NCBI GenBank assembly: GCA_040878395.1
Contig: JBBDMI010000006.1
Span: forward strand, 67,145 to 131,144
From: Candidatus Babelota bacterium
GTDB taxonomy: Bacteria > Babelota > Babeliae > Babelales > Vermiphilaceae
DNA length: 64,000 nt
Direction of reading: 5' to 3'
A program made the position numbers and the translations under genes. Below the pieces are notes generated by a model, which was not told the DNA's origin, searched no databases, and worked only from the letters and a program-made list of their open reading frames with translations. Of this stretch, positions 3,483-62,590 are shown in pieces. How positions within the stretch are numbered: the stretch's first letter is position 1; each line of letters opens with the position of its first letter.

Positions 3483-3551
3483 TTTTGTCATTCCTGCGAA
3501 GGCAGGAATCTATAATTATTATGGATTCCTGTCTTCACAGGAATGACAAAA
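3483..3551. repeat. short palindromic element (two inverted arms) of the TTTGTCAT-hairpin repeat family
   Basis: ttttgtcattcctgcgaaggcaggaatc ... ggattcctgtcttcacaggaatgacaaaa. Each arm is itself an 8-bp hairpin (attcctgc/gcaggaat and attcctgt/acaggaat), and the arms are inverted relative to each other. Confidence 0.8.
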
Positions 3552-6202: not shown

Positions 6203-6384
6203 TTTTTCTATTTTGTCATCCCTGAAGGGGATCCAGGCCAATGAAACTCTTAATAATCAAAGGAATATTATCAGAATAAGTCTAAAATAATTCGTAAAAA
6301 ATTATAAAATTATTCTGGCAGAATCTCTCTTAGGATTATACCGGTTACCGCTGGATCCCCTTCAGGGATGACAAAATAGAAAAA
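6203..6384. mobile_element. MITE-like non-autonomous element with perfect 34-bp terminal inverted repeats
   Basis: Left end tttttctattttgtcatccctgaaggggatccag (6203-6236) is the exact reverse complement of 6351-6384. The internal AT-rich core (aataatcaaaggaatattatca...ataccggttaccgctgg) recurs in inverted orientation at 47102..47295. It has no ORF and lies in a divergent intergenic region. Confidence 0.8.
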
Positions 6385-20481: not shown

Positions 20482-20572
20482 AACCTTAAAGAAAAAGTGA
20501 GGAAAACATTTGTACCCTTTATTAATTAACAAGATAAGTTTCATTAATAATAATAAAAAAAAGGATTTTAAC

Positions 20573-35220: not shown

Positions 35221-36144
35221 TTATTGCTCAAATGCTTCAGGAATCAACCAACTGCCGGCCCAATGATGGACGGCAAATGATTCCGGTTGTATCCAACTTG
35301 AACGTGTAGTGTTTTTTTGGTGATAGCCACATGGATAAAAAAAGCTTGTAGGAAATGCAATATCAACACTATCATCTATTCCTGCTCGTGCAATAAATGC
35401 ACGACTAAAATGAATAGGGCCGCTACGAATAACGATTGGACCAAATCCACGATCTCGTTCAATAGTTTGCACTGCATATTTTAAAATTTCATGCCCAGGA
35501 TGTGCAGCAAACAATGCAGCGCCCAATTGAGCATAATTGGTGTCTAATGGTTGAATGCCAGTATAAAAATCGTATGCATGATGCAATGGATCAAGCGGTT
35601 TTAAACATTCAAAATCACAATCGATATACACGCCACCAATGCGATACACAATCTCATACTTTATAATATCCGATTTTTCGCCATAATTACGTGATGCGTC
35701 GAAAAACTTACGATTATCAAATTGCAATGGTGCAACATCAACAACAATATAACGCTCATCGGTCAAAAGAAGCAGATTTTGTAACTCTTGCCATGAATGC
35801 ACAACAATGCCACGTGGATCATTATCTATGCGGTCGGTCCACAGTACAAATCTCCAATCGGGATGCATATCTTCCCATGTTTTACGCAATGCTTTATCTT
35901 CTTGAGACAATGGACGCCCGAACCATACATGATGCATAATTTTGGGTATTTTTTCATATTCTTGAAACGTAACTTGATCAAGATTATATGTTGCATATAA
36001 TCTTCGTGACAGAGGCAACAGTTCTTGTATTATTGGCAGCTCTTGAAATTGATAACTATCAATTTGCATTGAAGCATCAAAATCAATTGCTGCATACGCT
36101 TGAATAAAAACAAAAATTGTTATAAAAAATATATTTTTTTTCAT
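35221..36144 (-). CDS. GT32-family glycosyltransferase with signal peptide
   Basis: IPKIMHHVWFGRPLS, WRFVLWTD, GEKSDIIKYEIVYRIGGVYIDCDFECLKPL. Its stop codon abuts the stop of the convergent 33799..35220. Confidence 0.75.
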   Translation of the reverse strand: MKKNIFFITIFVFIQAYAAIDFDASMQIDSYQFQELPIIQELLPLSRRLYATYNLDQVTFQEYEKIPKIMHHVWFGRPLSQEDKALRKTWEDMHPDWRFVLWTDRIDNDPRGIVVHSWQELQNLLLLTDERYIVVDVAPLQFDNRKFFDASRNYGEKSDIIKYEIVYRIGGVYIDCDFECLKPLDPLHHAYDFYTGIQPLDTNYAQLGAALFAAHPGHEILKYAVQTIERDRGFGPIVIRSGPIHFSRAFIARAGIDDSVDIAFPTSFFYPCGYHQKNTTRSSWIQPESFAVHHWAGSWLIPEAFEQ

Positions 36145-36160
36145 GATTCACTCAAAAAAT

Positions 36161-36184
36161 AAAAGCCTCGTTACAGAGGCTTTT
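36161..36184 (-). terminator. intrinsic terminator downstream of 36189..37130
   Basis: aaaagcctc-gttaca-gaggctttt. On the minus strand the hairpin is followed by attttttg. Confidence 0.6.
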
Positions 36185-36188
36185 AAAA

Positions 36189-37130
36189 TTAATCATTCCA
36201 ACATTCAGTCTCTTGATCATTATTTAATTTTTTAAATTGATCCAACCTATAGCGTGATGGCATCCAGCTTTTTGCCCAATGATGAATTGCATAAGCACCT
36301 TCTTTTATCCATTTTTCATAAGCCATTCCTTTTTCTTGGCATCCTAATGGATAAGCATAACTTGCGGGAAGCGCTATATCAATCCGCCCATCTTTACCGG
36401 CCATCTTAAAGAATGATTTGGTAAAATGTACAGGGCCACTTTTTTTTGGTGCTCCTTTATGATGCCAATCATCTTTGATTGTTTCAATACAATGGGCCAA
36501 AATAGGATGTTTTGGCGGTGCGCCGTAAAGTGCTGCACCCAACTGTACAAACTGTGAATCCAGTGGTTGAATTGCAGTAACAAAATCATAGCCAAGTAAT
36601 GAATCCAATGGTTTAAGACATTCAAAATCAACATCTAAATAAAAACCACCGAAATTATAAATTATTTCCCATTTCATTAAATCAGAACGAACTCCCGGAC
36701 TTTCAGTTGAATCGAAATATGCACGGTTATGCATATGCATATTTTTTACATCTTCATCTGTCCATAGTTTATAAAACCATCCACGACCCATATGATAATG
36801 TTTCCATGATTCACACAGTTGCACAAAAGATTCAGGCAACGGACCACCAATCCAAATTTGATGAATAATACGTGGGATTTTTTCCTCTAATGTAATCCCT
36901 TTTGCCTGCAAGGCAGAAAGATTATTTTTTTGATACAGATCTTTGAAAAAATCATATAGTTCTTGACCATCAATTTCTTCAATGATTAATCGAGTTGTTG
37001 GTATTGCGCGTGGATATTTTTCTTTACGCATTGAAACATCAAAGTCTGCATAAACCCACGGTTCAACTTCATCTGCACCCATCGCCACACATTGCAATAA
37101 AACCAACGAACATATAATTATCTTTTTCAT
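36189..37130 (-). CDS. GT32-family glycosyltransferase with signal peptide
   Basis: IPRIIHQIWIGGPLP, YKLWTD, GVRSDLMKWEIIYNFGGFYLDVDFECLKPL. Confidence 0.75.
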   Translation of the reverse strand: MKKIIICSLVLLQCVAMGADEVEPWVYADFDVSMRKEKYPRAIPTTRLIIEEIDGQELYDFFKDLYQKNNLSALQAKGITLEEKIPRIIHQIWIGGPLPESFVQLCESWKHYHMGRGWFYKLWTDEDVKNMHMHNRAYFDSTESPGVRSDLMKWEIIYNFGGFYLDVDFECLKPLDSLLGYDFVTAIQPLDSQFVQLGAALYGAPPKHPILAHCIETIKDDWHHKGAPKKSGPVHFTKSFFKMAGKDGRIDIALPASYAYPLGCQEKGMAYEKWIKEGAYAIHHWAKSWMPSRYRLDQFKKLNNDQETECWND

Positions 37131-38676: not shown

Positions 38677-39798
38677 TTACCAATTCATAACAACTGCAGC
38701 TTGCTTCATCACATAAACTTCATGTTGAATCATTTCTTTGACCAACTGTTCAAAATTAACTTTTGGTTCCCAACCAAGCTTTTCTTTCGCTTTTGTTGCA
38801 TCACCAATGAGCAGATCGACTTCAGCCGGTCTGAAATACTGCGGATCAACAAAAACATACGGCGTACCGGTACGTTTATCAAGGCCACGTTCGTTCAATC
38901 CTTCACCTTCCCATACAATTTCGATACCAACATGTGCAAATGCAATTTCAACAAACTCACGCACTGAATGCATTTGTCCGGTTGCAATCACAAAATCTTC
39001 CGGTTCATCTAACTGCAAAATACGCCACATCGCATCGACATATTCACGTGCATGACCCCAATCACGCTTTGCATCAAGATTTCCTAAATAAAGAGCATCT
39101 TGAAATCCGAATTTAATACGCGCAACAGCACGAGTAATTTTTCGTGTTACAAATGTTTCACCCCGCACCGGTGATTCATGATTAAACAAGATGCCATTAC
39201 ATGCATATAAACCGTATGCTTCGCGATAGTTTTTTGTTATCCAAAAACCGTACAGTTTTGCAACACCATATGGTGAGCGAGGATAAAATGGTGTTAATTC
39301 TGTTTGTGGAATTTCTTGCACTTTCCCATACAGTTCACTGGTTGACGCTTGATAAAAACGAGTTTTATTGGTCAACCCTAAAATGCGAATCGCCTCCAAA
39401 ATACGTAAGGTGCCTAATGCATCAACTTGTGCTGTATATTCCGGAAGTTCAAACGAAACGGCAACATGACTTTGAGCAGCTAAATTATAAATTTCATCCG
39501 GCTCAATCTCTTTTATTAATCGGATAATATTACTTGTATCGGTGATATCGCCATAATGTAATTCAAATCTGTTGTCCGGAGATTGATGTTTATCTCTATA
39601 GATGTGATCTAATCGTGGAGTATTGAATGATGAAGCTCGACGTTTGACCCCATGAACTTTATACCCTTTTTGTAATAACAGTTCAACTAAGTATGAACCA
39701 TCTTGCCCGGTAACTCCGATGATCAATGCAACTTTGGCATGTATGGATATAACACCTAGTAACAACAATAAAACTAATTTAAACATACTTTTTTTCAT
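38677..39798 (-). CDS. gmd: GDP-mannose 4,6-dehydratase carrying an N-terminal signal peptide-like extension
   Basis: [76 protein letters not shown]. Homology to E. coli Gmd ([18 protein letters not shown]) starts right after the leader [26 protein letters not shown] lies 5 nt upstream of ATG 39798. Confidence 0.9.
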
Positions 39799-39817
39799 TC
39801 TCATCCTTTTTTTTACC

Positions 39818-39844
39818 TTTGTCATCCTCGAAGAGGATCCAGGC
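39818..39844. repeat. solo arm of the TTTGTCAT-hairpin repeat family
   Basis: tttgtcatcctcgaagaggatccaggc, with hairpin atcctc-gaa-gaggat. It lies ~20 nt upstream of the gmd copy 1 start. Confidence 0.7.
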
Positions 39845-39891
39845 TAAAATAACTTTCATTCAAAAAACTATTTTAGCTTATTTAAAATAAA

Positions 39892-40899
39892 CTACTCTGC
39901 TTCAAATATATGAAATCGCTCACACCATTCAAGGGTTTTTTCAATCCCTGCTTTTAAATCGGTTTTTGCTTGCCATCCGAGTTCGGTCATTTTATCAACA
40001 TTGAGCAGCTTACGCGGTGTTCCATCAGGCTTTGATCTGTCCCAAACAATTTCACCTTCAAAACCAACAACCTCTTTTATCATGTTGGTCAACTCGGAAA
40101 TTGAAACATCAACACCGGTACCAATATTGACTATTTCACTGCCATCATATTGATTCATTAAGAAAATACAAGCATCAGCTAAATCTTCAACATACAAAAA
40201 TTCACGAAATGGGGATCCTGTTCCCCAAGCAACAAATTCTTTTTGGCCACGCAACTTTGCAGTATAAACTTTACGCAATAATGCAGGCAAAACATGTGAT
40301 GTTTCTAAATTAAAATTATCATTTGGTCCATATAAATTTGTCGGCATACATGCAATAAAATTTGTTTCATATTGACGATTATAAGCTTGGCACATTTTAA
40401 TACCGGTTATTTTTGCAATTGCATACGGCTCATTTGTCCATTCCAGTTCACTGGTGAGTAAATACTCTTCTTTCATCGGTTGAGGACAATTGCGCGGATA
40501 AATACATGAAGAGCCTAAAAAGAGCATTTTTTTTACTTTAAAATGATACGATGCATGAATAATGTTCGATTGAATCATTACATTGTCATAAATAAATTCT
40601 GCTGGTTTGTCACGATTTGCCAAAATACCACCAACCTTTGCCGCACACATAAATACATAATCCGGACGCTCATGATGAAAAAATTTGTAAACTTCTTGTT
40701 GATTACGCAAATCAAGCTCATGGTGATTACGCGTTATGATATTAGAATAACCTTCATCTTTTAATTGACGTACAATTGCAGAACCAACCAATCCACGATG
40801 ACCTGCAACATAAATTTTTGCTTTTTTATGCATCTCTGCTTGGCACGAAACTGCAGCAGTCAAACCTGCCATTACCATCGACAATCCTCTCTTCATCAT
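39892..40899 (-). CDS. fcl: GDP-L-fucose synthase (GDP-4-keto-6-deoxymannose 3,5-epimerase/4-reductase) with hydrophobic N-terminal extension
   Basis: KIYVAGHRGLVGSAIVRQL, LGSSCIYP, EPYAIAKI, PTNLYGPNDNF, SHVLPALL. GGAGA lies upstream of the MMKRGLSMVMAGLTAAVSCQA start. An internal Met23 (40833, MHKKAKIYVAG) would give a canonical cytosolic form. Confidence 0.85.
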   Translation of the reverse strand: MMKRGLSMVMAGLTAAVSCQAEMHKKAKIYVAGHRGLVGSAIVRQLKDEGYSNIITRNHHELDLRNQQEVYKFFHHERPDYVFMCAAKVGGILANRDKPAEFIYDNVMIQSNIIHASYHFKVKKMLFLGSSCIYPRNCPQPMKEEYLLTSELEWTNEPYAIAKITGIKMCQAYNRQYETNFIACMPTNLYGPNDNFNLETSHVLPALLRKVYTAKLRGQKEFVAWGTGSPFREFLYVEDLADACIFLMNQYDGSEIVNIGTGVDVSISELTNMIKEVVGFEGEIVWDRSKPDGTPRKLLNVDKMTELGWQAKTDLKAGIEKTLEWCERFHIFEAE

Positions 40900-40959
40900 A
40901 TCTCCAATCTATAAGCTTTTAATAATGGGACATCTTAGCAATTGTTCCAAAAAGAGTAA

Positions 40960-40989
40960 AGAGCAGAAGGTACAAGTACCTTCTGCTCT
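40960..40989. terminator. strong hairpin, probable bidirectional terminator
   Basis: A 14-bp perfect stem agagcagaaggtac / gtaccttctgctct, with T-rich tracts on both strands (tcgtttttatttttt on the plus strand, ttactcttttt on the minus strand). Confidence 0.6.
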
Positions 40990-41008
40990 TCGTTTTTATT
41001 TTTTGTGT

Positions 41009-41290
41009 CTATTTTGTATTAGTTATAATTTCTCCGACTATATCTAATACTATAATTCCAGCATAAACGGCAAAGATCGCTAATCCGGCTTTATAATAGA
41101 CATCACGCCATTCATTATCTACCAATTCTTGAGTGCTCGGACTTATAAGATAAACTGCCTCGCCATTTTTAACCATTTCTTCTGTTTTTTCATCTACATA
41201 AAAAATATCTGTATCGATTGTATTTGCATGCAGTAATGAGATATTACCAAAAAAAAGTAAAAAACTTAAAAAAATAATTCGCAACATCAA
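41009..41290 (-). CDS. small membrane/secreted protein
   Basis: 93 aa. Leader MMLRIIFLSFLLFFGNISLLHA and a C-terminal TM helix (AGLAIFAVYAGIIVLDIVGEII). Confidence 0.5.
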   Translation of the reverse strand: MMLRIIFLSFLLFFGNISLLHANTIDTDIFYVDEKTEEMVKNGEAVYLISPSTQELVDNEWRDVYYKAGLAIFAVYAGIIVLDIVGEIITNTK

Positions 41291-41298
41291 TGTCCCTT

Positions 41299-41613
41299 TT
41301 ATACTAATGTCTTTAAAACTTTATTCATTGATTTTAGCTCTGAATTCATTTTAATGAACATCAAAACTGATAGCATCGTACCCCATGCGCATATTAAACC
41401 GGTCAACATTTGTACCGCTGAAACACGTGACAAAATACGCGTATATGCCAATTGAAGTTCAGATCTTTTATCTTTCTCAAAAATATTTTGAATTAAAGTT
41501 ATCACTTTATCTTGCTCTGCTTGATCAATATTTTTTGCTTCTGCTGCATCCAATGGCGTTACCATACACATTATTAAACTTAAAAAAACAATGTTTTTTA
41601 TATTTTTAATCAT
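41299..41613 (-). CDS. small membrane/secreted protein
   Basis: 104 aa. Leader IVFLSLIMCMVTPLDA and a C-terminal TM helix (MLTGLICAWGTMLSVLMFI). Confidence 0.5.
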   Translation of the reverse strand: MIKNIKNIVFLSLIMCMVTPLDAAEAKNIDQAEQDKVITLIQNIFEKDKRSELQLAYTRILSRVSAVQMLTGLICAWGTMLSVLMFIKMNSELKSMNKVLKTLV

Positions 41614-41638
41614 TATTAATCCAATACAGTTTTAAAAT

Positions 41639-42592
41639 TTATTTATTCAAATTTATAGATTTCACCATAGCTAATACTCTGCTAATAATGCCTGGATTCA
41701 GTCTTGAAAAATCTTTTTTCATTTCCTGTACTCGACACAAAATCTGATCATAGCTTATTGTTGGATGAACTTTATCATTATTAAAGTCCCATGAAATTGC
41801 ACTTTGAAGAGCATCTTCTAAAACTCTAGGCTCAAAATATTCTGTTTGCTTTGCAATATTACGAATCTGTTCATCAGACATACTGTGTTTTATACTAAGA
41901 TATCGTTTTATAATTTCAACTCTATGATCTTCTGAAGTCTTTTTTAAATCATAAATAGACTGGCCAAAATGGTGTTGATTATGCTCATCAAGATCATCCC
42001 AAATATCTAAGTCTATTCCTCCAATCAAAATAAAACGTCCTCGATATTTTCTTAATAACATCCAAAGATCTGCAGGCATAACAACCTTGTCACAGCATTT
42101 TGCACCAAAAAGCAACAATTCATCCATAACTAATGCTATTTTTACATCACTATTTTCTAATTTATCACCAATTTCATATATTTTACTTTGTAGGTATCCA
42201 TTAAAATTATACTTAAAACGGCTATAGTCTGACTCAACATCAACAAATTCGACTTCTCCCTCAATCATAGAGGCCATCGCATAGATCATATCTCTCTTAC
42301 TAAAGCCATAACCGCGACATCTTAAAATAATCTTATTAGGTACCAATTTAGTTTGATCCCTATTGAATCGATCAATTTTTTTTGCTAAATCCGGATAAAA
42401 TTTTTTAATATCTTCAACCAATTTTGGATCAAATTTTCGTCTACCCCATAGGCTGGTATTACTTTCACTGTTTTTTATTTCAATGTTGTCTTTGCTTGAA
42501 ACACCATCAGGCAAATTACTATCGGCCAATAATATTCCTGCACTCATTACCAATGAAAAAACTATCCCTTTTTGCACTGTTTGCTTTGTCAT
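41639..42592 (-). CDS. degenerate AAA+ ATPase-like protein with signal peptide (Walker A eroded, Walker B kept)
   Basis: Collinear with the classic AAA module. KIILRCRGYGFSKRDMIYAMA stands in place of the G-PPGTGKT-LA region; IALVMDELLLFG corresponds to Walker B hhhhDE; RFILIGGIDLDIWDDLDEHNQHHFGQSIYDLKKTSEDHRVEIIKRYL corresponds to ATNRPD..LRPGRFD..I...P....R..IL. Leader GIVFSLVMSAGILLA. Confidence 0.45.
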   Translation of the reverse strand: MTKQTVQKGIVFSLVMSAGILLADSNLPDGVSSKDNIEIKNSESNTSLWGRRKFDPKLVEDIKKFYPDLAKKIDRFNRDQTKLVPNKIILRCRGYGFSKRDMIYAMASMIEGEVEFVDVESDYSRFKYNFNGYLQSKIYEIGDKLENSDVKIALVMDELLLFGAKCCDKVVMPADLWMLLRKYRGRFILIGGIDLDIWDDLDEHNQHHFGQSIYDLKKTSEDHRVEIIKRYLSIKHSMSDEQIRNIAKQTEYFEPRVLEDALQSAISWDFNNDKVHPTISYDQILCRVQEMKKDFSRLNPGIISRVLAMVKSINLNK

Positions 42593-42707
42593 GCCTTAAT
42601 CCTTGTATGAGACTTGTTAATCTTATCATTGAGTGTAACAAGAAAAATAAAATATAAAAATGGCAAGTTAAGTTTTTACGATGAAATAAAAATCATACAA
42701 AGAAAAA

Positions 42708-42732
42708 GCCTTGTGTATTTGTTACACAAGGC
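42708..42732 (-). terminator. intrinsic terminator downstream of the large ankyrin gene
   Basis: gccttgtgta-tttgt-tacacaaggc. On the minus strand it is followed by tttttctttg. Confidence 0.65.
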
Positions 42733-42755
42733 CTTGTAAATAATATCGATTTTAA

Positions 42756-44804
42756 TTAAAAGCTGTTCATTTGAGTATGCAATTTCCTACTCGCTTTACT
42801 TTCATGGAAGCAACGATGATAACACACATCATCTTTGTCAAAGATGTATACAAATGCACCATTAAAACCGGTACGAGTTGAAACATATTGATCATCAATA
42901 GCATATGTATAATCATAATACTTATGTTCAATTTTACCTGGAATAACAATTGCATATAAATTTGCCGGAACATATAAACCTATATCATCACACAACTGTT
43001 TATACTTACCGTCAACTGTATCATCTATGCGCACACCATAAGACAAATAATCATCGAGTTGATTACTAAAGAGATGAAACTTATCAGTTGCATCTTTATG
43101 TTTCTCTTTATAATTGTCATGCAAACGAACTGCCTTTGGTGAATTTTCCTTTGACAATGCACGGCGATTATACAAAACAAGTGTCATAGGATAACGACCC
43201 AACTGTCTAAATGCCGCATGTGAATCATCAACTTGCAAGACGCACGTTTCACAATCAAATATATGTGATGGATCCACTTGCAACCATTTTACACTTTTTT
43301 GCTTTACTTCTTTTTTATCATCAGGTAACGATACTATTTCTTTCTTTACACTTGCCGGTGGCGAACTGCTAAAAGCATTTTTTCTAGCTAATTTTTTTGC
43401 TCTTCTTTTAGCTTGTTGCTTTTGTTTTTGCGAAACTTGTTTTTGTTGTTGAACCATCTGACGCTGTAATAGTCGAGCAATTGCTTTATGGTCATTTTGC
43501 TTTGCAATATCAATCGGCTTTTTACCATACTTATCAGCTTGATGCAGATCTGCTTTATAATTAATAAGAACTTCTACCGCATCCAAGCAACCATATTGAG
43601 CTGCAAGAAATAATGGCGACACTCCGTGACTATCACTTATATTGGCCAACTTCTTATCATATGAACATAGTTTATTAATTAAATAAGGACGATCATATTG
43701 CGCAGCTTTATGCAACGCTGTAAAACCTTCATCAACTTCTACTAACTGCGTACGAGCATTTACTTGATATTTTAATAAAAGATCTACTATATGAGGATGC
43801 CCCTCTAAAACAGCAAAATATAATGGCGTACTTCCTTGATGCGCAATAGCATCCTTATTTGCACCATTTCTTAACAAATATGTTGCAATATCAAGATGCC
43901 CCTGTGAACATGCAATATGCAATGGAACAATGCCACTTGAAGTTTTTGCATGTATATCAGCATCTAATGTTATTAATCTTTTTACTGCAGAAAGTTTGCC
44001 GACATGCACCGCTGTATGCAATGACGTAACTCCTGAATCTGAAGCGATATCAACAGGAACGCCTCTTTCTTTTACCAATAATTCGATAATACCTATAAGA
44101 TCGCGTTGAGCCGCAAAATGTAACGCTGTATGCCCTTTAGCATTTTGCGCTTTCAGATCAATGCCAGTAGATACTAAATATTTCGATAATTGTTCAAAAC
44201 TCAATACAATAGCTAAATGCAATAAAGTATTGCCACCAGCTGTTTTGAAATGTAGATTTGCGCCTTTACTCAATAAAAAAGTCACCATTTCAAGTTGATC
44301 ATTAATAACAGCCATGGAAAGTGGTGTGTGCCTATCTATTGATAAAGCTTCCAAATCTATGCCCTGATCTATCAATAATTCTGCAATTTTAATACGACCA
44401 TGAAGCGCCGCCAAATGAAGTGCAGTACAATGCTTTTTGCTCACTAATGTCTTATCAGCACCAGCATCAAGCAAAAGTTTAGTTATATCAAAATAACCTT
44501 CTTGCGCAGCTATCAACAACGGAGTGCAACCATTATGCCGAACATTAATATCAACTCCCGGAAACTTCACAAAAGCTTTTACTGTTTCAACGTCTCCATT
44601 ATATGCTGCTGCAACTAAAACAATTTGTTTATATGGTAATAAATGCTTAAGTGCCTCATTTTTATACTGAGCATTGTTTGTTGCACAAGCTAATTGATAC
44701 ACGCTGCTCCACTTGGCAGCTTCGTTGAAATCTTGATCACTAGCTTTTAAATAGCCAAAAATGGATATCAAACAGATAAACATAGAAAATAATTTACGTT
44801 TCAT
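42756..44804 (-). CDS. ankyrin-repeat protein (~11 repeats) with signal peptide, Lys/Gln-rich linker and unknown ~200-aa C-terminal domain
   Basis: Repeated G-x-TPL-H-x-A...G...hh..Ll..GA motifs (CTPLLIAAQEGYFDITKLLLDAGAD, CTALHLAALHGRIKIAELLIDQGID, and so on). Linker QQQKQVSQKQKQQAKRRAKKLARK. Leader MKRKLFSMFICLISIFGYLKA. Confidence 0.85.
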   Translation of the reverse strand: MKRKLFSMFICLISIFGYLKASDQDFNEAAKWSSVYQLACATNNAQYKNEALKHLLPYKQIVLVAAAYNGDVETVKAFVKFPGVDINVRHNGCTPLLIAAQEGYFDITKLLLDAGADKTLVSKKHCTALHLAALHGRIKIAELLIDQGIDLEALSIDRHTPLSMAVINDQLEMVTFLLSKGANLHFKTAGGNTLLHLAIVLSFEQLSKYLVSTGIDLKAQNAKGHTALHFAAQRDLIGIIELLVKERGVPVDIASDSGVTSLHTAVHVGKLSAVKRLITLDADIHAKTSSGIVPLHIACSQGHLDIATYLLRNGANKDAIAHQGSTPLYFAVLEGHPHIVDLLLKYQVNARTQLVEVDEGFTALHKAAQYDRPYLINKLCSYDKKLANISDSHGVSPLFLAAQYGCLDAVEVLINYKADLHQADKYGKKPIDIAKQNDHKAIARLLQRQMVQQQKQVSQKQKQQAKRRAKKLARKNAFSSSPPASVKKEIVSLPDDKKEVKQKSVKWLQVDPSHIFDCETCVLQVDDSHAAFRQLGRYPMTLVLYNRRALSKENSPKAVRLHDNYKEKHKDATDKFHLFSNQLDDYLSYGVRIDDTVDGKYKQLCDDIGLYVPANLYAIVIPGKIEHKYYDYTYAIDDQYVSTRTGFNGAFVYIFDKDDVCYHRCFHESKASRKLHTQMNSF

Positions 44805-44974
44805 ATTGAACCCCCATTCAATGATATATACCTAAAAAATAGATTTTTTTAGGTGTTTTCCCGATAAAAAACGGCTTTAACCGTACTATAATTATACAAC
44901 TTTATTTCATTTTGTAAATAAAATATTGGATCTTAGCTATAAAATATTAGTCAAAGGAAGAAAATAGCTTGCAT

Positions 44975-45805
44975 TCACCGATTTTCGGCATAGCGTAATT
45001 TTAAATATTTTTGCCAAATATGTGGAAAGACATGAGCAATATATAGATCAAGCTTACGACGTTCATCAGACGAAACTAGCAAAGCATGATGCTTTGTTTT
45101 TTCGCCTTTAGTTAAAGAGGTGTCTTCCTGCTTTTCATACATCGATAAACTTGCTAATTTGTGTTCATCATACTGTGCCATAAAATCGTCTAGATATTCT
45201 GGACTAACATTTAAAAAATTCAGTAATTTTTTAAACACCTGCTCAGGCTGTGTAATCAAATCTTCATAATAAATGAGATGCCTTTTGTCAGGACACCATT
45301 CATCATACAACTTTAAAATATCAAAATAGTTCATGGTTAAGGTATTGTTAAATAGCTCTTTTGCTGTTGGATTATCAAGCGACCTGTTTTTATTTCGCCG
45401 TGAAAGCAGATTAAAAATTCTTGGCAACGCCTCTTTTGGATTACGCACAATCACAATTAAAGTTTCTTGTTGCGAATCGAATGTACCCATCATTTTCATT
45501 TGATCAATATAATGTACTTTCCAAATAGGCAACTTATTATAATCAGTTTGCATATCAAACCAATAACCGAAAGGACAGTTGATTTTTGTTATTTTTTCGG
45601 TACGCATCTCCAACGTCGGACGCTTGGTTAAATATTCAAGACAATAACGCAACCATGTGTTTCCTGAACCGGGAAATGAAAGTAAATAGGTTTTTGGTGC
45701 ATCAGTATAGAACCGAGAAAGATTCATCTGATCAACATCAACCCATTCGCCAACTTTTGCATAAAAAGAACAAAAAATAAGTAGGGTGAATAACATTTTC
45801 TTCAT
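44975..45805 (-). CDS. sulfotransferase-like protein with signal peptide
   Basis: LLSFPGSGNTWLRYCLEYL (P-loop-like PAPS 5'-phosphosulfate site) and VIVRNPKEALPR (3'-PB-like). Leader MKKMLFTLLIFCSFYA. Confidence 0.5.
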   Translation of the reverse strand: MKKMLFTLLIFCSFYAKVGEWVDVDQMNLSRFYTDAPKTYLLSFPGSGNTWLRYCLEYLTKRPTLEMRTEKITKINCPFGYWFDMQTDYNKLPIWKVHYIDQMKMMGTFDSQQETLIVIVRNPKEALPRIFNLLSRRNKNRSLDNPTAKELFNNTLTMNYFDILKLYDEWCPDKRHLIYYEDLITQPEQVFKKLLNFLNVSPEYLDDFMAQYDEHKLASLSMYEKQEDTSLTKGEKTKHHALLVSSDERRKLDLYIAHVFPHIWQKYLKLRYAENR

Positions 45806-45898
45806 AGCATTTTACTTTCATTTTGTTGTTTTACTTCCTGTGCTCATCTAGCATTAAATGCAACCTTAACACAAAGATATCGTAATATACCTATAGAT

Positions 45899-46996
45899 CT
45901 ATATTTCCAACTGTGCTATTTTTTGGCCTACAGTCATAACGCCGGACATTTGTTCATTATTTAGCAACTCTTGCTCATCAGCTTTAATCATGATACTAAC
46001 CAATTCATAAAAGGTGACCTTTGGTTTCCACTGCAAAATCTTTTCTGCTTTTGAAGCATCACCACGCAATTGCTCAACCTCTGTTGGTCTAAAATATTGT
46101 GGATCTACTGCGACAATTTTATTTCCTGTATCAGCATCAATTGCATAAGCATCTTTACCGTGGCCAAGCCATTGCAACTTAATATCCACACATGCAAACG
46201 CCAAATCAACAAATTCACGGACACTGTGCATCTGCCCGGTCGCAATAACTAAATCATGCGGTCTCTCTTGTTGTAACATAAGCCACATAGCCTCTACATA
46301 ATCTTTTGCATATCCCCAATCACGCTTTGCATCTAAATTACCCAAATATAATGTTTGTTGCACGCCATGTTTTATGCGCACAGCTGCACGGGTAATTTTA
46401 CGCGTTACAAAAGTCTCACCACGCATTGGAGATTCATGATTAAATAAAATACCATTACATGCAAACATGCCATAGGCTTCGCGATAATTTTTTGTTATCC
46501 AATATGCATACAGTTTTGCTGCAGCATACGGCGAACGTGGTGCAAATGGGGTATGTTCATTCTGTGGACACTCAGTCGCATTACCATATAATTCACTCGT
46601 GGAAGCTTGATAAAAACGTACTTTTTCAGTTAAACCTAAAATACGAATAGCTTCTAACATACGCAGTGTGCCAAGTCCATCAGCTTGTGCTGTATACTCC
46701 GGTGTTTCAAATGAAACTGCAACATGACTTTGCGCTGCTAAATGATAAATCTCATCAGGTTGAATTTCCTGAATAACACGGATTAAATTGGTAGAATCGG
46801 TGACATCGCCATAATGCAACTGAAAGCGTCGCTCAGGCGATTCATGTTGATCTTGAAATAGGTGGTCAACACGTGAAGTATTAAATGAAGAAGAGCGCCG
46901 CTTGATGCCATGCACTTCATATCCTTTTTGCAATAACAGCTCTGCTAAATATGAACCATCTTGTCCGGTGACACCGGTAATAAGCGCTCTTTTCAT
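45899..46996 (-). CDS. gmd: GDP-mannose 4,6-dehydratase (canonical, no leader)
   Basis: [75 protein letters not shown] 7 nt upstream of the ATG. Confidence 0.9.
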
Positions 46997-47101: not shown

Positions 47102-47295
47102 CCATTTTGTCATTCCTGAAGGGAATCCAGTGGTAACCGGTATGATTTTTAAGAAAACCTTGCCAAAATGATTTATAATTTTTTTACAAATTATTTTTGA
47201 TAATATTCCTTTGATTATTGAACAATCTTCTTTGCCCAGTCTTTGTCCAAACTATGCCGGTTACCGCTGGATCCCCTTCAGGGATGACAAAATGG
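47102..47295. mobile_element. MITE-like element, second full-length copy (inverted relative to 6203..6384)
   Basis: Ends are ccattttgtcattcctgaagggaatccagtggtaaccgg and ccggttaccgctggatccccttcagggatgacaaaatgg. The reverse complement of the core shares aataatcaaaggaatattatca...ataccggttacc with the 6.2-kb copy. A 13-nt terminal fragment gatgacaaaatag recurs at 47353-47365. Confidence 0.8.
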
Positions 47296-47408: not shown

Positions 47409-48530
47409 TTACAGATGTTTTTTATAACTACCTTGTTTTAATAATTTTACAATGCCACGCACATTTTCCGCAGCATCACGCTTGGTAATCAACAGTGCAT
47501 CATCAACTTCGACAACACACAAATCATCAACACCAACAAGCGCAACCAATTTACCCGGGACATCAACTAAATTATTACGTGCATCAACACCAATAAAATT
47601 CGCATCCAAAGTGTTATACTGTTGTTTCAATGACAAAAACACCTCAATGTTTCCTACATCACACCAAGAAAAATCAACCGGCATAACCGAAACATGCTTG
47701 CTTCGTTCCATAACGGCATAATCAATTGAATCGGCAACAACTTTTTCATAGCTACCAACATTGTCTAAGTAGTTTTTAACACCTGCGAACATTTCCGATG
47801 CTTCTTGTTGAAACTCACGCATAAACGTTGAAGCCTGTGCACAAAAAATACTTATATTCCAAAGTTTATTGCCTTGTTCGATATATTGTTGTGCAACTTC
47901 GAATGACGGCTTTTCACGGAAACGACTCACTTTATATGGCGCTTGTTGCTCTAATGCATCCTGTGGATCAAATTCAATATATCCATAACCGGTTGCAGGA
48001 TAAGTCGGCTCTACACCAAGTAGTACGATATCATCATGCTTTGTTGCATGATCAACTGCATGATCTAAAAAGTCTCTACACTTTTCCCAATCACGTTTTG
48101 GAATAAACGGATCTGCCGGCAGGAAAACAATAACAGCATTTGGATCAATTGCATGGATTTCCATACAACATAATAAAATTGCAGGTCCGGTGTTGCGCGA
48201 ACCAGGCTCAACTAAAATACGCCCAACACGATGCTCAACAGATAACCGAATGTTTTCTTCATGCTTAGCTGTTGTACTTATCCAAATATGATCTTTTGTT
48301 GTCATCGGCGCAATACGATCAATTGCTTGCTCAAGTAACGTAACATCAGAACCTAATGTTAATAGCTGTTTTGGCTTGCATTGTCGACTCAACGGCCATA
48401 AGCGAGAACCATCACCACCGGCTAAAATAACACAATACAGATTTTTTTTATTCATATTAGTTCCGTGTGCTGTAAATGCTGAACATGCGACCAATAAACA
48501 CGCAAATAGTTTTTTACCATGAAATACCAT
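47409..48530 (-). CDS. manC: mannose-1-phosphate guanylyltransferase with signal peptide-like leader
   Basis: YCVILAGGDGSRLWPLSRQCKPKQLL plus an NTP-transferase fold. The start at Met13 (MVFHGKKLFACLLVACSAFTAHG) has AGGAG 7 nt upstream. An internal Met38 (48455, MNKKNLYCVILAGG) would give a canonical leaderless form but has no clear SD. Confidence 0.8.
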   Translation of the reverse strand: MVFHGKKLFACLLVACSAFTAHGTNMNKKNLYCVILAGGDGSRLWPLSRQCKPKQLLTLGSDVTLLEQAIDRIAPMTTKDHIWISTTAKHEENIRLSVEHRVGRILVEPGSRNTGPAILLCCMEIHAIDPNAVIVFLPADPFIPKRDWEKCRDFLDHAVDHATKHDDIVLLGVEPTYPATGYGYIEFDPQDALEQQAPYKVSRFREKPSFEVAQQYIEQGNKLWNISIFCAQASTFMREFQQEASEMFAGVKNYLDNVGSYEKVVADSIDYAVMERSKHVSVMPVDFSWCDVGNIEVFLSLKQQYNTLDANFIGVDARNNLVDVPGKLVALVGVDDLCVVEVDDALLITKRDAAENVRGIVKLLKQGSYKKHL

Positions 48531-56843: not shown

Positions 56844-57779
56844 ATGAAGCACAAACCAATGTTAGCTAAAATCGGCAAAGAGGAGCTTCTTGAAGATAAC
56901 GAACTTATTTTTGAACCAAAACTTGATGGCTATCGTGCATTATGTGAAGTTACACCAAAAAGTATGAAGTTCTACAGCCGTCGCGGCATTGATATCACTC
57001 AACAATTTCCTGAGTTCGATTTTCGAAATCTAATTGACGCAAAGTCATGTATTTTGGATGGTGAAATTATTGTATACAACAAAAAAGGACTTCCTGATTT
57101 CAATCTCATGCAAGGACGCAGTCAACTAACACAACAAGCATTAATTGATGAACGATCCGAAGCTCATCCTGCAACATATGCTGTTTTTGATATATTAACA
57201 AAGGATGGCAAATCACTACTAAAAAAACCGTTCATTGAACGGCATGACATATTATATAAAACTATAAAACAAGGCAATCATCTTGAGCTGCTACCTTGGA
57301 CCCATAACGGCAAAAAACTGTTTCAAGAAATGAAACAACATAAACTTGAAGGAGTAATTGCAAAAGATCCTCAAGGCATATATGAACCGGGCAAACGAAC
57401 CCGTGCATGGCAAAAAGTAAAATTCAACAAAACAGTTGAATGCGTAGTCCTTGGATTTACACAAGAAAAAAAATTGATCTCTTCTCTCGCCTTAGGACTA
57501 TATGATGAAAAAGGTAAACTGCACTATGTCGGCAGAGTTGGCACCGGATTCTCTCAAGACAAAATCGATGAACTCTATCCGAAACTGCTCAAATATGAAA
57601 CGGCAAAACCTGCTGCAAAAAATATTGCCAAAATCAGCAATTTAATTTTAATCAAACCGAACATTGTTGTTGAAATTAAATATCTTGAAATGAGCAAAAC
57701 CGGCACGTTACGCCATACGTCTTATGTGCATTATCGTGATGATAAAAAACCAAAAGCTTGCACATTAGATCAGTTATGA
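56844..57779 (+). CDS. ATP-dependent DNA ligase (minimal adenylation + OB-fold, LigC/LigD-ligase-domain-like)
   Basis: Motif I FEPKLDGYRAL, III ILDGEIIVY, IIIa YAVFDIL, IV EGVIAKD, V AWQKVKF, VI LRHTSYVHYRDDK. Begins ..KPMLAK.., as in LigD-type ligase domains. Confidence 0.8.
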   Translation: MKHKPMLAKIGKEELLEDNELIFEPKLDGYRALCEVTPKSMKFYSRRGIDITQQFPEFDFRNLIDAKSCILDGEIIVYNKKGLPDFNLMQGRSQLTQQALIDERSEAHPATYAVFDILTKDGKSLLKKPFIERHDILYKTIKQGNHLELLPWTHNGKKLFQEMKQHKLEGVIAKDPQGIYEPGKRTRAWQKVKFNKTVECVVLGFTQEKKLISSLALGLYDEKGKLHYVGRVGTGFSQDKIDELYPKLLKYETAKPAAKNIAKISNLILIKPNIVVEIKYLEMSKTGTLRHTSYVHYRDDKKPKACTLDQL

Positions 57780-57944
57780 CTTTGTTCGCTTTGCTTTATA
57801 ATCAGCAATTTTTTTTTTCAGATCTTCGATTTCATCAAATATCGATTCATAGGTTTCAAGATCTAAATATACAGATTCTGTCTTACCTTGTGCATTTTTA
57901 AGGAATTGCGGCTTTATTTCGGGATACTTTTTCTTTCTTTTCAT
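57774..57944 (-). CDS. small antitoxin-like ORF (56 aa), not in the supplied ORF track
   Basis: My translation is MKRKKKYPEIKPQFLKNAQGKTESVYLDLETYESIFDEIEDLKKKIADYKAKRTKS. It resembles the antitoxin at 58218..58427 (KIKPGFFYDEEGNKIGVLLKLEEFGEIMDELEDLHD). GAAGGT lies 6 nt upstream. The ATG is 2 nt after the toxin stop, and the 3' end overlaps the ligase stop by 6 nt. Confidence 0.45.
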   Translation of the reverse strand: MKRKKKYPEIKPQFLKNAQGKTESVYLDLETYESIFDEIEDLKKKIADYKAKRTKS

Positions 57945-57946
57945 GC

Positions 57947-58231
57947 TTAATACCTTCTATAAACTTGCTTTCTATGAGCAATACCTATAACCAAAATAGT
58001 AATAACATTATGCTTTACCTGAAAAACGACACGATAGTCACCAACTCTCATCCGATAGATTGACTCTGTTGTGCCTTCTAGCTTCTTTATATCTTGATTA
58101 AAATCTGATGAGACAAGCCCTTCCAATTTTTGATTAATTTTTTTAAGCTGTGGTTTATCAATCTTTTTGAGATCTTTTTTTGCCTGCACAGCAAACTCAA
58201 TTTTATAGCCAACAAAACTACTTTTTAGCAT
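57947..58231 (-). CDS. relE: RelE/ParE-family type II toxin
   Basis: YRMRVGDYRVVFQVKHNVITILVIGIAHRKQVY, the classic RelE/ParE C-terminal signature. Overlaps the upstream antitoxin by 14 nt. Confidence 0.75.
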   Translation of the reverse strand: MLKSSFVGYKIEFAVQAKKDLKKIDKPQLKKINQKLEGLVSSDFNQDIKKLEGTTESIYRMRVGDYRVVFQVKHNVITILVIGIAHRKQVYRRY

Positions 58232-58427
58232 CTAGAACTTCTTTCATCACTTCATCGTATGGAATCGTTTTAGTTTCTTGAGCAGTACGCTCATAGACCA
58301 TACAAACATCATGCAGATCTTCCAGCTCATCCATAATCTCGCCAAACTCTTCAAGCTTTAACAAAACCCCTATTTTGTTACCTTCTTCGTCATAAAAAAA
58401 ACCTGGCTTTATCTTTAATTTCATCAC
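58218..58427 (-). CDS. type II antitoxin (partner of RelE/ParE toxin)
   Basis: A 69-aa acidic protein immediately upstream of, and overlapping, the toxin gene. Contains the ELEDLHD motif. Confidence 0.55.
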   Translation of the reverse strand: MMKLKIKPGFFYDEEGNKIGVLLKLEEFGEIMDELEDLHDVCMVYERTAQETKTIPYDEVMKEVLDAKK

Positions 58428-61564: not shown

Positions 61565-62590
61565 TTAAAATCCAAAGCCGACACGTACGGTTAAACCTTG
61601 CAATGCCAAATCGCCATTCACACTCATATTGGCACCGGCATTTACATCATCAAAAAAACGCATCAATTGATTCTGGCCAAAGAAATAAAGTTGTTCCCAA
61701 CCTGCTTGAATATCAAAATGGTAAGAATCATCACACAGCGTTGTTTGCCAACCTAAACCAAGCATTAAATCAAGACGTGGACGACACATTGCAAAACGAT
61801 TACACGCAATATCTAAAAAAGTAGTTGGTGCAACTTCGTCAGAAAATGCAATCTCTTCATGCTGTTTAATCTTATATCTGCCATAAAGCAATGCTACATC
61901 AAAATTTCCTGATATAAAAAAATCACACCCTAATGCCCAACGTGAACGAATCCCAACTTTGGGACCAACACCCCAAAAATCATTACACATATCAATATCA
62001 TCATCCAATACAATGGCAACCGGCCCCTGGCTTTGTCCACCATTTGAATTAATATTAAATGTTTGATTAATCCGTGCATAAGCAACACCTAATAATGGCA
62101 TAATATCAACTGAACAAGTTGGTGAAAACCATGCATGCAAATGTGCATCAAGCATATTAAGATCAAGACGGACACATGCGTTGGCATTTTGTGCTGTTGT
62201 TATTGTTGAGCCGGGATTTGTCCACACAGGAAAAAGAACCACCGGAAATGTTTCTGAAAGACAATCGTTACCTTTCGTGCCAAAGCGAGTCCAATATGCA
62301 GTTAAACCCATATCACGATGTTCATTATAATAACTTTCACCTATACGAAATCCTCCATTACGATCAAATTTTGCACGCTCAACTTGACCACAGGTATTGA
62401 TATGTACTGCACCATTATTATTTGTAATCGCATAATCAAGTCCATCTTCATATGCGCGCCAGTACAGTCCATCTACAAATCCATAAAAAGAATGGCATGA
62501 CTCTTGTTGAGTATCACATCCCTTTTGCATATCACATGCAGTTGCACTTAAATAAGTAAGCATTAACAAAGCTATTTTTGCGTGTTTCAT
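61565..62590 (-). CDS. cysteine-rich beta-barrel outer-membrane protein (Legionella-MOMP-like)
   Basis: Signal peptide MKHAKIALLMLTYLSATA. The C-terminal ..LQGLTVRVGFGF ends in Phe. Alternating hydrophobic beta-strand pattern. About 12 Cys by my count. GAGGGA upstream. Confidence 0.5.
   Translation of the reverse strand: MKHAKIALLMLTYLSATACDMQKGCDTQQESCHSFYGFVDGLYWRAYEDGLDYAITNNNGAVHINTCGQVERAKFDRNGGFRIGESYYNEHRDMGLTAYWTRFGTKGNDCLSETFPVVLFPVWTNPGSTITTAQNANACVRLDLNMLDAHLHAWFSPTCSVDIMPLLGVAYARINQTFNINSNGGQSQGPVAIVLDDDIDMCNDFWGVGPKVGIRSRWALGCDFFISGNFDVALLYGRYKIKQHEEIAFSDEVAPTTFLDIACNRFAMCRPRLDLMLGLGWQTTLCDDSYHFDIQAGWEQLYFFGQNQLMRFFDDVNAGANMSVNGDLALQGLTVRVGFGF

Follow-up and report, generated by a model that had tools for sequence, protein, structure and literature searches.

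The window, which here means the whole 64-kb stretch of DNA that was analysed, carries two genes for GDP-mannose 4,6-dehydratase (Gmd), of which gmd1 encodes an N-terminal leader and gmd2 does not. It belongs to a member of Candidatus Dependentiae (TM6/Babelota), a phylum of obligate intracellular protist parasites. The genes and signals at the locus are as follows.

35221..37130, minus strand: two Gly_transf_sug (DXD, GT32/TcdA-TcdB-like) glycosyltransferases with leaders, syntenic in L002, L005, L088 and L089
37140..38672, minus strand: GT2 glycosyltransferase with leader, directly downstream of gmd1, position kept in relatives
38677..39798, minus strand: gmd1, Gmd with a signal-peptide-like leader, 373 aa (Pfam, PDB, gene caller, dN/dS)
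39736..39798, minus strand: coding region of the gmd1 leader, 21 residues, predicted cleavage after IHA (charged n-region, hydrophobic run, -3/-1 site)
39804..39808, minus strand: Shine-Dalgarno AAGGA, 5 nt before the gmd1 leader ATG (read from the sequence; equivalents in orthologues)
39892..40899, minus strand: fcl, GDP-L-fucose synthase with leader (MMKRGLSMVMAGLTAAVSCQAE-MHKKAKIYVAGHRG) (Pfam Epimerase, E 2.5e-63; homologue names)
44975..45805, minus strand: sulfotransferase (Sulfotransfer_1) with leader, downstream of gmd2 (Pfam, relatives' loci)
45899..46996, minus strand: gmd2, leaderless Gmd, 365 aa, starting MKRALITG (Pfam, database identity)
47409..48530, minus strand: manC, mannose-1-phosphate guanylyltransferase with leader (MVFHGKKLFACLLVACSAFTAHG...) (Pfam NTP_transferase and ManC_GMP_beta-helix)

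Both gmd products match the Pfam family PF16363 (GDP_Man_Dehyd) over the full profile (positions 1-332 of 332), Gmd1 with residues 25-356 (E 1.4e-158) and Gmd2 with E 6.3e-157. The protein identical to Gmd2 is named [quoted passage not shown], and other database matches are named Dependentiae or Babeliales. Gmd1 also matched the E. coli Gmd structure 1db3 (E 2e-157), and residues 3-341 of the solved Gmd 7kf3 align to its residues 22-361 (E 9e-164). Since the core starts at residue 22 in the latter alignment, residues 1-21 represent an added leader. The gene caller, run on the identical Logan contig, likewise gave a product of 373 aa, while the mechanical ORF of gmd1 extends beyond 39798 to 39825, an extension which we regard as spurious because its ATG sits inside a repeat.

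The initial annotation had described two collinear and highly similar copies, and this was borne out: both ORFs are intact on the minus strand, and BLASTP aligned the proteins over 337 residues with 71% identity, 84% positives and 0 gaps. The GxxGxxG NADP-binding motif is intact in both, and the Tyr-x3-Lys motif is present as SPYGVAKLY in one copy and SPYAAAKLY in the other (SPY..AKLY); the catalytic Thr/Glu and Tyr-x3-Lys residues are those that we take to be equivalent to E. coli Gmd. The dN/dS was 0.03-0.05 among Gmd1 orthologues and 0.08-0.09 among Gmd2 orthologues. Both copies are therefore judged to be intact and under strong purifying selection and, from the catalytic and cofactor motifs together with dN/dS, predicted to be functional.

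The Gmd1 leader consists of a positive n-region (MKKSMFK), about 13 uncharged hydrophobic residues and I-H-A at the -3/-1 site, which is followed by K. It contains neither RR (not Tat) nor a lipobox Cys (not a lipoprotein); among homologues, a Cys near the c-region is only sporadic. Signal peptides were called by hand-coded rules, not by SignalP, with a positive n-region, an h-region of 7-15 residues and small residues at -3/-1 as the criteria. Leaders were found on 85 of the 240 best Gmd database matches, and it turned out that the n-region is net positive in 94% of these 85, the uncharged run has a median of 13 residues and reaches 22 in some, and the -3/-1 site is present in nearly all (82 of 85). 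The leaders vary in sequence but keep this constant design. Among the Gmd loci examined from other phyla, 0 of 13 had a leader. By its features the Gmd1 leader conforms to a cleavable Sec (SPase I) signal peptide, whose translocation and cleavage are predicted; the cut after A-x-A would leave K-V-A-L-I-I-G as the mature N-terminus.

The leader is also translated, judging from the Shine-Dalgarno placement, the in-frame length changes and the lack of any ATG or GTG between the leader and the GxxGxxG motif. In all orthologues examined, AAGGA, GGAG or AAGGAG stands 5-9 nt ahead of the leader ATG of gmd1, fcl and manC (GGAG for fcl and AAGGAG at 7 nt for manC in the window), and the differences in leader length between orthologues are all in frame. 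It is very improbable that the leader is an annotation artefact and that Gmd1 is a second cytoplasmic isozyme with its real start downstream, for instance at the TTG codon which is present at Leu25. The homologue P0079 is indeed annotated without a leader by the NCBI pipeline (starting MSMRAQKVAFII), but the JGI annotation of the same gene includes it (P0058). Besides, the canonical Shine-Dalgarno sequence lies ahead of the leader ATG and none lies ahead of the TTG, a start at Leu25 would cost three conserved N-terminal residues, and the n-h-c design is kept in 85 divergent sequences although the leader drifts fast (48% identity vs 90% for the Gmd core).

Leaders are the rule in this region. 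Between 109 and 48566, a 48-kb island, they are found on 45 of 49 ORFs, including those for glycosyl-, sulfo- and methyltransferases and a UXS-like SDR, so that Gmd2, and not Gmd1, is the exception. As the initial annotation had noted, copy 1 with its 21 extra residues lies beside leader-bearing Fcl and GT2, to which ManC can be added. Fcl homologues go by the name GDP-L-fucose synthase, and a leader is present on 70 of the 120 best matches; the ManC leader is kept in L002, L006, L007, L088 and L089. The order manC (leader)-gmd2 (none)-fcl (leader)-gmd1 (leader)-GT2 (leader)-GT32 (leader) is shared by five related genomes (L002, L005/L006, L007, L088 and L089), across which Gmd1 identity goes down to about 70%. 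In the cultured isolate Noda2021, leaders are present on Ugd, NUDIX, Fcl, Gmd and GT2 and absent from ribonucleotide reductase and transaldolase, and the NUDIX gene adjoins fcl. The leaderless start of copy 2 was likewise confirmed, with MK[RK]ALIT as the N-terminus of all close relatives of Gmd2, which is predicted to be an ordinary cytoplasmic enzyme.

To place the two copies, a neighbour-joining (NJ) tree was built from 242 Gmd cores with 100 bootstraps, in which Gmd1 and Gmd2 fall into separate clades, one of 94 leaves (82 with leaders) and the other of 148 leaves (4 with leaders: P0163, P0170, P0197 and P0214, of independent origin). The split between leader and leaderless sequences received 78% and the Gmd2 subclade 100%, while Gmd1 and Gmd2 were sisters in 0 of 100 replicates. 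As the deep branches are short (0.002-0.02) and the tree is NJ only, the support for a monophyletic leader clade is only moderate. This clade is large, and is known here only from Dependentiae. Its cores show almost no adaptation, with 2 of 346 alignment columns diagnostic for the clade and 1.9 vs 2.3 cysteines per core. The pair is judged to be old paralogues, whose split is ancient and clade-wide rather than a recent local duplication. The local event proposed in the initial annotation does not agree with the separate clades, the saturated dS of 1.87 between Gmd1 and Gmd2, and the same pair with the same leader pattern in five relatives. Among the explanations of origin, a smaller though appreciable share goes to separate origins, in which one gmd was acquired horizontally and not duplicated within Dependentiae; this would be compatible with the export model given below. 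The failure of the two to group as sisters speaks for it, and so does the 70-75% identity of Gmd2 to Gmd from Brevibacillus, Paenibacillus and Methanosarcina, which is comparable to its 71% with Gmd1. However, Gmd is so conserved, and its deep branches are so short, that the tree can't separate an ancient duplication from a transfer; moreover, both gmd regions have a host-like GC (0.37) and both copies stand within one conserved operon.

A hairpin repeat lies 5' of both gmd genes, as the initial annotation had reported, and further copies occur elsewhere in the window (none of the four has an assigned strand).

3483..3551: short palindromic variant with the TTTTGTCATTCC...GGAATGACAAAA ends common to the MITE
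6212..6375: second full MITE copy, between a GT6 gene and a sulfotransferase gene, far from any gmd
39818..39862: decayed MITE remnant between fcl and gmd1 (solo arm 39818-39842 plus about 20 nt of interior; holds the ATG at 39825)
47102..47295: full MITE of 194 bp with 72-nt imperfect terminal inverted repeats, between manC and gmd2 (arms, fold, absence in relatives)

The arms of the full copy by gmd2 (47102-47173 and 47224-47295, 72 nt each) are 76% complementary, its RNA fold reaches -83.5 kcal/mol (z = -10.2), and the solo arm near gmd1 pairs with 47267-47291 at 88% complementarity. For the 25-nt end motif the window gives 5 occurrences and 100 shuffles give 0. The 194-bp element does not contain any complete ORF of 60 aa or more, and the exact 25-mer was absent from the JGI metagenome contigs. 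TA is found on both sides of the 6212-6375 copy and not of the 47102-47295 copy. The element resembles Correia, REP and other bacterial MITEs in being small, non-coding, intergenic and multicopy, in the length of its terminal inverted repeats and in the high stability of its RNA hairpin. It differs from them in that it matches no Rfam family, and we saw neither a clear target-site duplication nor a cognate transposase (no transposase domain in Pfam scans of the window).

In the five relatives the repeat is missing from both gmd-side sites (for the remnant site in L005, L002, L007, L088 and L089); the manC-gmd2 gap is 10-17 nt vs 412 nt in the window, and the fcl-gmd1 gap is at most 32 nt, with an overlap in one, vs 93 nt. 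This absence from both sites in all five indicates a recent insertion and not the cause of the duplication, and the repeat is judged to be a dispersed MITE which is a recent arrival in this lineage and played no part in the origin of the gmd paralogy. The initial annotation had suggested a recent repeat-mediated local duplication followed by gain of the leader, with the repeats as recombination junctions or promoters, to which we now give almost no credence. It is true that the same repeat end faces the gene at both copies and that each repeat gives an ATGACA box scoring as a weak -35. But dS is saturated, the five relatives share the paralogue pair, the order and the short gaps without the repeat, and other repeat copies lie away from gmd. 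A regulatory role fares no better, as promoter and terminator scans stayed at chance level (3 promoter-like matches vs 2.8 and 1.0 expected) and the predicted -10 of gmd1 overlaps the start codon.

The reading towards which we lean, as somewhat probable, is that the old gmd paralogues have different destinations, and that the ManC-Gmd1-Fcl route with its transferases is exported by Sec and makes GDP-fucose extracytoplasmically. The Sec machinery would export the whole route, and the enzymes would fold, bind NADP and act beyond the bacterial cytoplasm, with the periplasm as one possible site and, if they are released further, the host cytosol or vacuole as another. With GTP, mannose-1-phosphate and NADPH taken from the host they would form GDP-fucose, which would be used to build or remodel glycans carried by the parasite surface or by host targets. 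Export, cleavage, site of action and acceptors are all inferred. The compartment split claimed in the initial annotation is retained in so far as a conserved leader is found on Gmd1 only and the neighbours are leader-bearing, but not as the outcome of a local duplication, the split being ancient and clade-wide. Its “cytosolic GDP-fucose synthesis” by Gmd2 is not upheld, as the 64-kb window has no leaderless ManC or Fcl partner and both flanking enzymes bear leaders.

Several observations stand against export. Sec passes unfolded chains, so that Gmd must bind NADP+ and oligomerise after export; Fcl requires stoichiometric NADPH; GTP, mannose-1-phosphate and NADPH are not normally present in the periplasm; the leader clade has hardly any core adaptation; and leaderless Gmd2 sits between leader-bearing ManC and Fcl. 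Instead of a soluble secreted protein, the leader might yield an uncleaved membrane anchor, by which Gmd1, Fcl, ManC and the transferases would form an assembly line on the inner membrane; we consider this unlikely. Nearly all island enzymes share a short N-terminal hydrophobic segment right before the catalytic domain, an arrangement similar to Golgi type II glycosyltransferases and Golgi UXS1, and uncharged runs of up to 22 residues in some family members would suit an anchor. However, the median run of 13 is too short for a membrane span, and 82 of 85 family members have a small or aliphatic -3 and a small -1 residue at its end. Such an anchor would more probably face the periplasm (type II anchor) than the cytoplasm, as the N-terminal positive charge places the catalytic domain outside.

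Extending the export reading to the whole island, we tentatively propose, at rather less than even confidence, that Dependentiae possess a complete system for nucleotide-sugar synthesis and glycosylation which operates beyond their own cytoplasm, and that the one leaderless Gmd of the operon is retained for some other, cytoplasmic purpose. Its members would be ManC, Gmd, Fcl, Ugd/UXS-like, GT2, GT6, GT32, GT47-like, sulfotransferases and methyltransferases, each bearing a Sec signal peptide; they would work in the periplasm or a host compartment, and the host would supply GTP, sugar phosphates, NADPH, PAPS and SAM. If true, this would give bacteria an equivalent of the Golgi lumen, or of the glycogen pathway that Chlamydia runs in the inclusion lumen.

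Predicted Sec-dependent secretomes have been described in the same phylum, with signal peptides on 44% of CDS in Chromulinavorax (PMC6561590) and on ankyrin and ubiquitin-system proteins in Babela (PMC4378268). As here, an N-terminal signal of this kind sits on normally cytoplasmic proteins, and delivery towards the host is inferred. These published secretomes stress ankyrins, proteases, nucleases and ubiquitin enzymes, unlike the glycan enzymes here, and a term search of the two papers for fucose, mannose and glycosyltransferases gave no match. Neither a nucleotide-sugar pathway with leaders nor a pair of paralogues with and without a leader came up in our literature search. In Chlamydia trachomatis, glycogen-metabolism enzymes are secreted into the inclusion lumen (PMC4829429), and the Chlamydia phosphoglucomutase CT295 acquired a type 3 secretion signal (PMC9251005). 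That system is also one of an intracellular bacterium with secretion signals on housekeeping sugar enzymes and a pathway running outside on host nucleotide-sugar supply, but it has type 3 signals, UDP-glucose and glycogen, whereas the locus here has Sec-type signals, GDP-mannose to GDP-fucose conversion, dozens of transferases and an export that is predicted only. The E. coli gmd-fcl-gmm-manC cluster (colanic acid/O-antigen) has the same enzymes and chemistry, with Gmd, Fcl and ManC clustered as here, but its GDP-fucose enzymes are all leaderless and cytoplasmic, while ManC, Fcl and one Gmd have Sec-type leaders here and a second, leaderless Gmd is interleaved. Among giant viruses, the chlorovirus GDP-fucose/rhamnose enzymes GMD and GMER are likewise brought along by a parasite of protists and use host metabolites for its own glycans, as is proposed here; unlike here, they are synthesised in the host cytoplasm itself and so require no signal for export.

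The two GDP-mannose 4,6-dehydratase genes differ in how they start: gmd1 encodes an N-terminal, signal-peptide-like extension (leader) and gmd2 does not.

38677-39798, minus strand: gmd1, 373 aa, leader-bearing
45899-46996, minus strand: gmd2, 365 aa, leaderless

Aligned over 337 residues without a gap, the two proteins show 71% identity and 84% similarity, and both cover the Pfam GDP_Man_Dehyd profile entirely (E 1e-158 for Gmd1 and 6e-157 for Gmd2), which bears out the two highly similar full-length copies of the initial annotation. Its leader on copy 1 only is also confirmed, as an extension of 21 residues that Gmd2 lacks here and in every relative. Since residues 22-361 of Gmd1 align to residues 3-341 of a solved Gmd (7kf3; E 9e-164), residues 1-21 extend an enzyme that is already complete; the E. 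coli structure 1db3 matches Gmd1 with E 2e-157. Cofactor and catalytic motifs are intact in both proteins. A database protein identical to Gmd2 comes from a Candidatus Dependentiae MAG, other close matches carry Dependentiae or Babeliales names, and a Logan contig contains the same sequence. An ATG at 39823-39825, inside the end of a repeat (ATGACAAA), stretches the mechanical gmd1 ORF to 39825 (382 aa, MTKVKKRMR...). This longer ORF is an artefact of the repeat insertion, and the orthologues begin at the position of ATG 39798.

To describe the leader, signal peptides were called by hand-coded rules. The 240 best-matching database relatives of both copies include 85 with an extension N-terminal to the GxTGQDG motif. 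In these 85 proteins the n-region is net positive in 94%, the uncharged run has a median of 13 residues, fewer than a membrane helix needs, and the run ends with a small or aliphatic residue at -3 and a small one at -1 in 82. The leader sequence is free to vary and the design is constant; in many of them the predicted cut restores a normal Gmd N-terminus (in Gmd1, between IHA and KVALIIG). Compared with the related locus L002, the Gmd1 leader is 48% identical and the core 90%, so the leader drifts much faster yet keeps its character, and leader lengths of the orthologues differ in frame. A Shine-Dalgarno sequence (AAGGA, spacing 5 nt) precedes the gmd1 leader ATG, and equivalent sites lie upstream of the leader ATGs of fcl (GDP-L-fucose synthase) and manC (mannose-1-phosphate guanylyltransferase) in every orthologue examined. 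Translation of copy 1 from a downstream start, an alternative raised in the initial annotation, finds no ATG or GTG between the Gmd1 leader and the cofactor motif, and the sole TTG there (Leu25) has no ribosome-binding site. We conclude that the Gmd1 leader is translated and under selection and, by these hand-coded rules, is built like a cleavable Sec signal peptide.

No such extension was found in the Gmd loci of 13 other phyla. When Gmd1 query-specific peptides were scanned against genome contigs, one Dependentiae locus (L007) was obtained, the rest being unrelated phyla that served as leaderless controls. The housekeeping ribonucleotide reductase and transaldolase next to the corresponding cluster of Noda2021 (L087) have no leader either. 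The same Gmd gene on a 1,237,367-bp contig is annotated by JGI as 383 aa with a leader (P0058) and by NCBI as 369 aa without it, starting at an internal Met (P0079). Such trimming by one pipeline is an annotation problem, and public annotation may undercount leader-bearing enzymes. Four homologues of the leaderless Gmd2-like clade (P0163, P0170, P0197 and P0214) carry a leader directly before a retained MK[RK]ALIT start, suggesting that leaders were gained repeatedly and independently by 5' extension.

To place the two copies, a neighbour-joining tree of 242 Gmd cores was built, with 100 bootstraps on 61 taxa. It turned out that one clade (94 leaves) has leaders on 82, most of the remaining leaves apparently having a truncated start call or a leader below threshold, and the other (148 leaves) has leaders on only 4. 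Gmd1 lies in a subclade of 24 members, all leader-bearing, and Gmd2 in one of 27, all leaderless. The leader/leaderless split is recovered in 78 of 100 bootstraps and the Gmd2 subclade in 100 of 100; Gmd1 and Gmd2, which belong to different clades, are never sisters (0 of 100). Between the paralogues dN is 0.24 and dS 1.87 (saturated), and the orthologue dN/dS ratios (0.03-0.05 for Gmd1 and 0.08-0.09 for Gmd2) indicate that purifying selection maintains both copies. The order manC (leader), gmd2 (no leader), variable inserts, fcl (leader), gmd1 (leader), GT2 (leader), GT32 (leader) is kept in five related genomes:

L005/L006: Gmd1 identity 96%
L002: Gmd1 identity 88%
L007 (MAG OFTM133): Gmd1 identity 85%
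L089: Gmd1 identity 71%, the four core genes contiguous
L088: Gmd1 identity 69%

Database contigs suggest that the pair lies on one contig in at least 13 lineages, directly verified for these five genomes. Based on the tree, the saturated dS, the purifying selection and the shared gene order, the split is ancient and is being actively maintained. An ancient duplication and the acquisition of one copy by transfer both fit, the deep branches of the Gmd tree being too short to separate them. The duplication followed by sub-functionalisation put forward in the initial annotation thus stands in an older, clade-wide form and falls as a recent, repeat-mediated event.

The repeat 5' of both gmd genes is real and is a dispersed MITE, an inverted-repeat element with four copies in the window:

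47102-47295: full MITE, 194 bp, with 72-nt imperfect inverted arms
6212-6375: second full copy, between a GT6 gene and a sulfotransferase gene
3483-3551: short variant with the same ends
about 39818-39862: right-hand remnant of a decayed copy, arm-like ("solo arm") at 39818-39842

Its 25-nt end motif occurs 5 times in the window versus 0 in 100 shuffles. The motif was absent from the 85 other loci searched, its exact 25-nt form had no match in a metagenome scan, and the repeat matched no Rfam family; the window contains no tRNA. The manC-gmd2 gap is 10-17 nt in the five relatives versus 412 nt in the window, and the fcl-gmd1 gap does not exceed 32 nt (an overlap in L088) versus 93 nt. Because these junctions are short and repeat-free in all five relatives, the insertions are recent and lineage-specific; the paralogy long predates them, so the MITE cannot have produced it. 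A recent MITE-mediated duplication is therefore ruled out by the saturated dS, the tree and the repeat-free syntenic loci, and the idea that the repeat mediated the rearrangement is rejected, the gene order being kept in five relatives without it. Elements before both gmd genes (2 of 4 elements, about 58 intergenic gaps) have a naive, post hoc probability of ~0.004, and such a coincidence is not unlikely because the island is built from few large gene families. A regulatory role as promoter or terminator, also considered earlier, is not supported: promoter-like and terminator-like scans of the repeat stayed at chance level with no terminator found, and the predicted -10 box of gmd1 overlaps the gmd1 start codon. 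Transcribed into RNA, the full element is predicted to form a hairpin of very high stability (-83.5 kcal/mol, z = -10.2), which could affect how a manC-gmd2 transcript is processed.

Copy 1 does sit beside leader-bearing Fcl and GT2 genes, and leaders extend to most of an island of about 48 kb (109-48566), where they start 45 of 49 ORFs (ORFs of at least ~90 aa). The only leaderless ones are Gmd2, a methyltransferase-GT2 fusion (3620-5188) and two FkbM fragments. Since leaders are this common and Gmd2 is leaderless in all relatives, the unusual member of the island is Gmd2, not Gmd1. By Pfam, the island encodes about 11 GT2, 7 Gly_transf_sug (GT32/TcdA-TcdB-like) proteins, 7 sulfotransferases, one GT6 (ABO blood-group family), two GT47/RXYLT1-like proteins, SAM-dependent and FkbM methyltransferases, a UXS-like SDR, ManC, Gmd1 and Fcl, and looks like an exported, Golgi-like toolkit for building glycans. 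An upstream block consists of leaderless and membrane proteins (PMT_2 multi-span transferase, ADH/GFO fusion, WecB-WecC fusion). Individual genes of the island and its flank are as follows:

5264-6097, minus strand: GT6 family protein with leader (ABO/alpha-1,3-Gal transferase family; Pfam E 1.6e-42)
8728-9747, minus strand: UXS-like SDR with leader MIMNNYKQWLFFVISVISFPCIYTQEQQ-KNVLVTGGAGFLG (Epimerase/GDP_Man_Dehyd profiles)
56844-57779, plus strand: ATP-dependent DNA ligase, leaderless, flanking the island
61565-62590, minus strand: Legionella-type major outer membrane protein, flanking the island
62617-63975, minus strand: GH81-like glycoside hydrolase, flanking the island

GT6 enzymes typically use fucosylated acceptors, and the GT6 protein would fit the adjacent GDP-fucose pathway. 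With the UXS-like SDR, a second nucleotide-sugar enzyme would carry a predicted export tag. In the cluster of the relative L089, a leader-bearing NodZ-like protein (20452-21137; alpha-1,6-fucosyltransferase family, weak Pfam match) is a candidate user of exported GDP-fucose. Three adjacent small ORFs of 56, 94 and 69 aa (57774-58427, minus strand) resemble a toxin-antitoxin cassette; the 94-aa ORF, by eye of RelE/ParE-type toxin look, lies between two short acidic ORFs of similar sequence. The window's GC content of 30-39%, the location of nearly all genes on one strand and the ankyrin-repeat proteins fit a phylum of obligate intracellular protist parasites.

No leaderless ManC or Fcl partner for Gmd2 exists within the window. 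Among the Fcl homologues P0241-P0360, 53 of 70 leader-bearing proteins have Met at the leaderless-Fcl start position (Met23 at 40830-40832 in the window) and most others have Ile there; the corresponding Met remains in only 4 of 85 leader-bearing Gmd and 1 of 15 ManC representatives. A dual location of Fcl and ManC through a second, internal start is not supported, as the internal ATGs have no Shine-Dalgarno sequence and the ancestral Met is absent from L089 Fcl and L088 ManC.

Judging from sequence, a full GDP-fucose pathway under constraint carries Sec-type leaders, and so do the transferases expected to use the product of this pathway. We infer that these enzymes would be exported and would work beyond the bacterial cytoplasm. 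Gmd binds NADP+ tightly and recycles it, Fcl consumes NADPH, ManC requires GTP and mannose-1-phosphate, and sulfotransferases require PAPS. Given the needs of the latter three, small molecules must be able to pass between the site of action and the host cytosol; the enzymes would work either in that cytosol or in the periplasm of a parasite surrounded by it. Both export and site are predictions. Of the cytosolic/exported division proposed initially, the old, clade-wide leader/leaderless pair holds, and the exported side is a prediction. The leader-clade and leaderless cores differ almost not at all in cysteine content or clade-diagnostic residues, so adaptation of the exported core is rejected. 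The pair is a natural experiment in which a housekeeping enzyme would have been retargeted with its core nearly unchanged.

Bacterial nucleotide-sugar synthesis is regarded as strictly cytoplasmic, and Sec-tagged Gmd, Fcl and ManC would surprise a glycobiologist. That signal peptides are generally abundant in Dependentiae is already known; in the literature on Dependentiae/TM6 we found no report of leader-bearing nucleotide-sugar enzymes or of leader/leaderless paralogue pairs. The export model agrees with inferences for the same phylum, as signal peptides occur on 44% of CDS in Chromulinavorax (PMC6561590) and secretion into the amoeba has been proposed for Babela proteins with signal peptides (PMC4378268). 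The closest parallel comes from Chlamydia: in the inclusion lumen, outside the bacterium, its glycogen enzymes act on host UDP-glucose together with a phosphoglucomutase that has an acquired secretion signal (PMC4829429, PMC9251005); here export is predicted. If true, the conserved, phylum-wide Sec-tagged ManC, Gmd and Fcl and dozens of Sec-tagged transferases would let an intracellular parasite make fucosylated, sulfated and methylated glycans outside its own cytoplasm from host-supplied precursors, a new route to surface camouflage or host-glycan modification. The idea is testable, since the cultured strain Noda2021 (PMC8812299) shares the trait, with leaders on UDP-glucose dehydrogenase (Ugd; L087 4077-5489), a NUDIX protein, Fcl, Gmd and two GT2.
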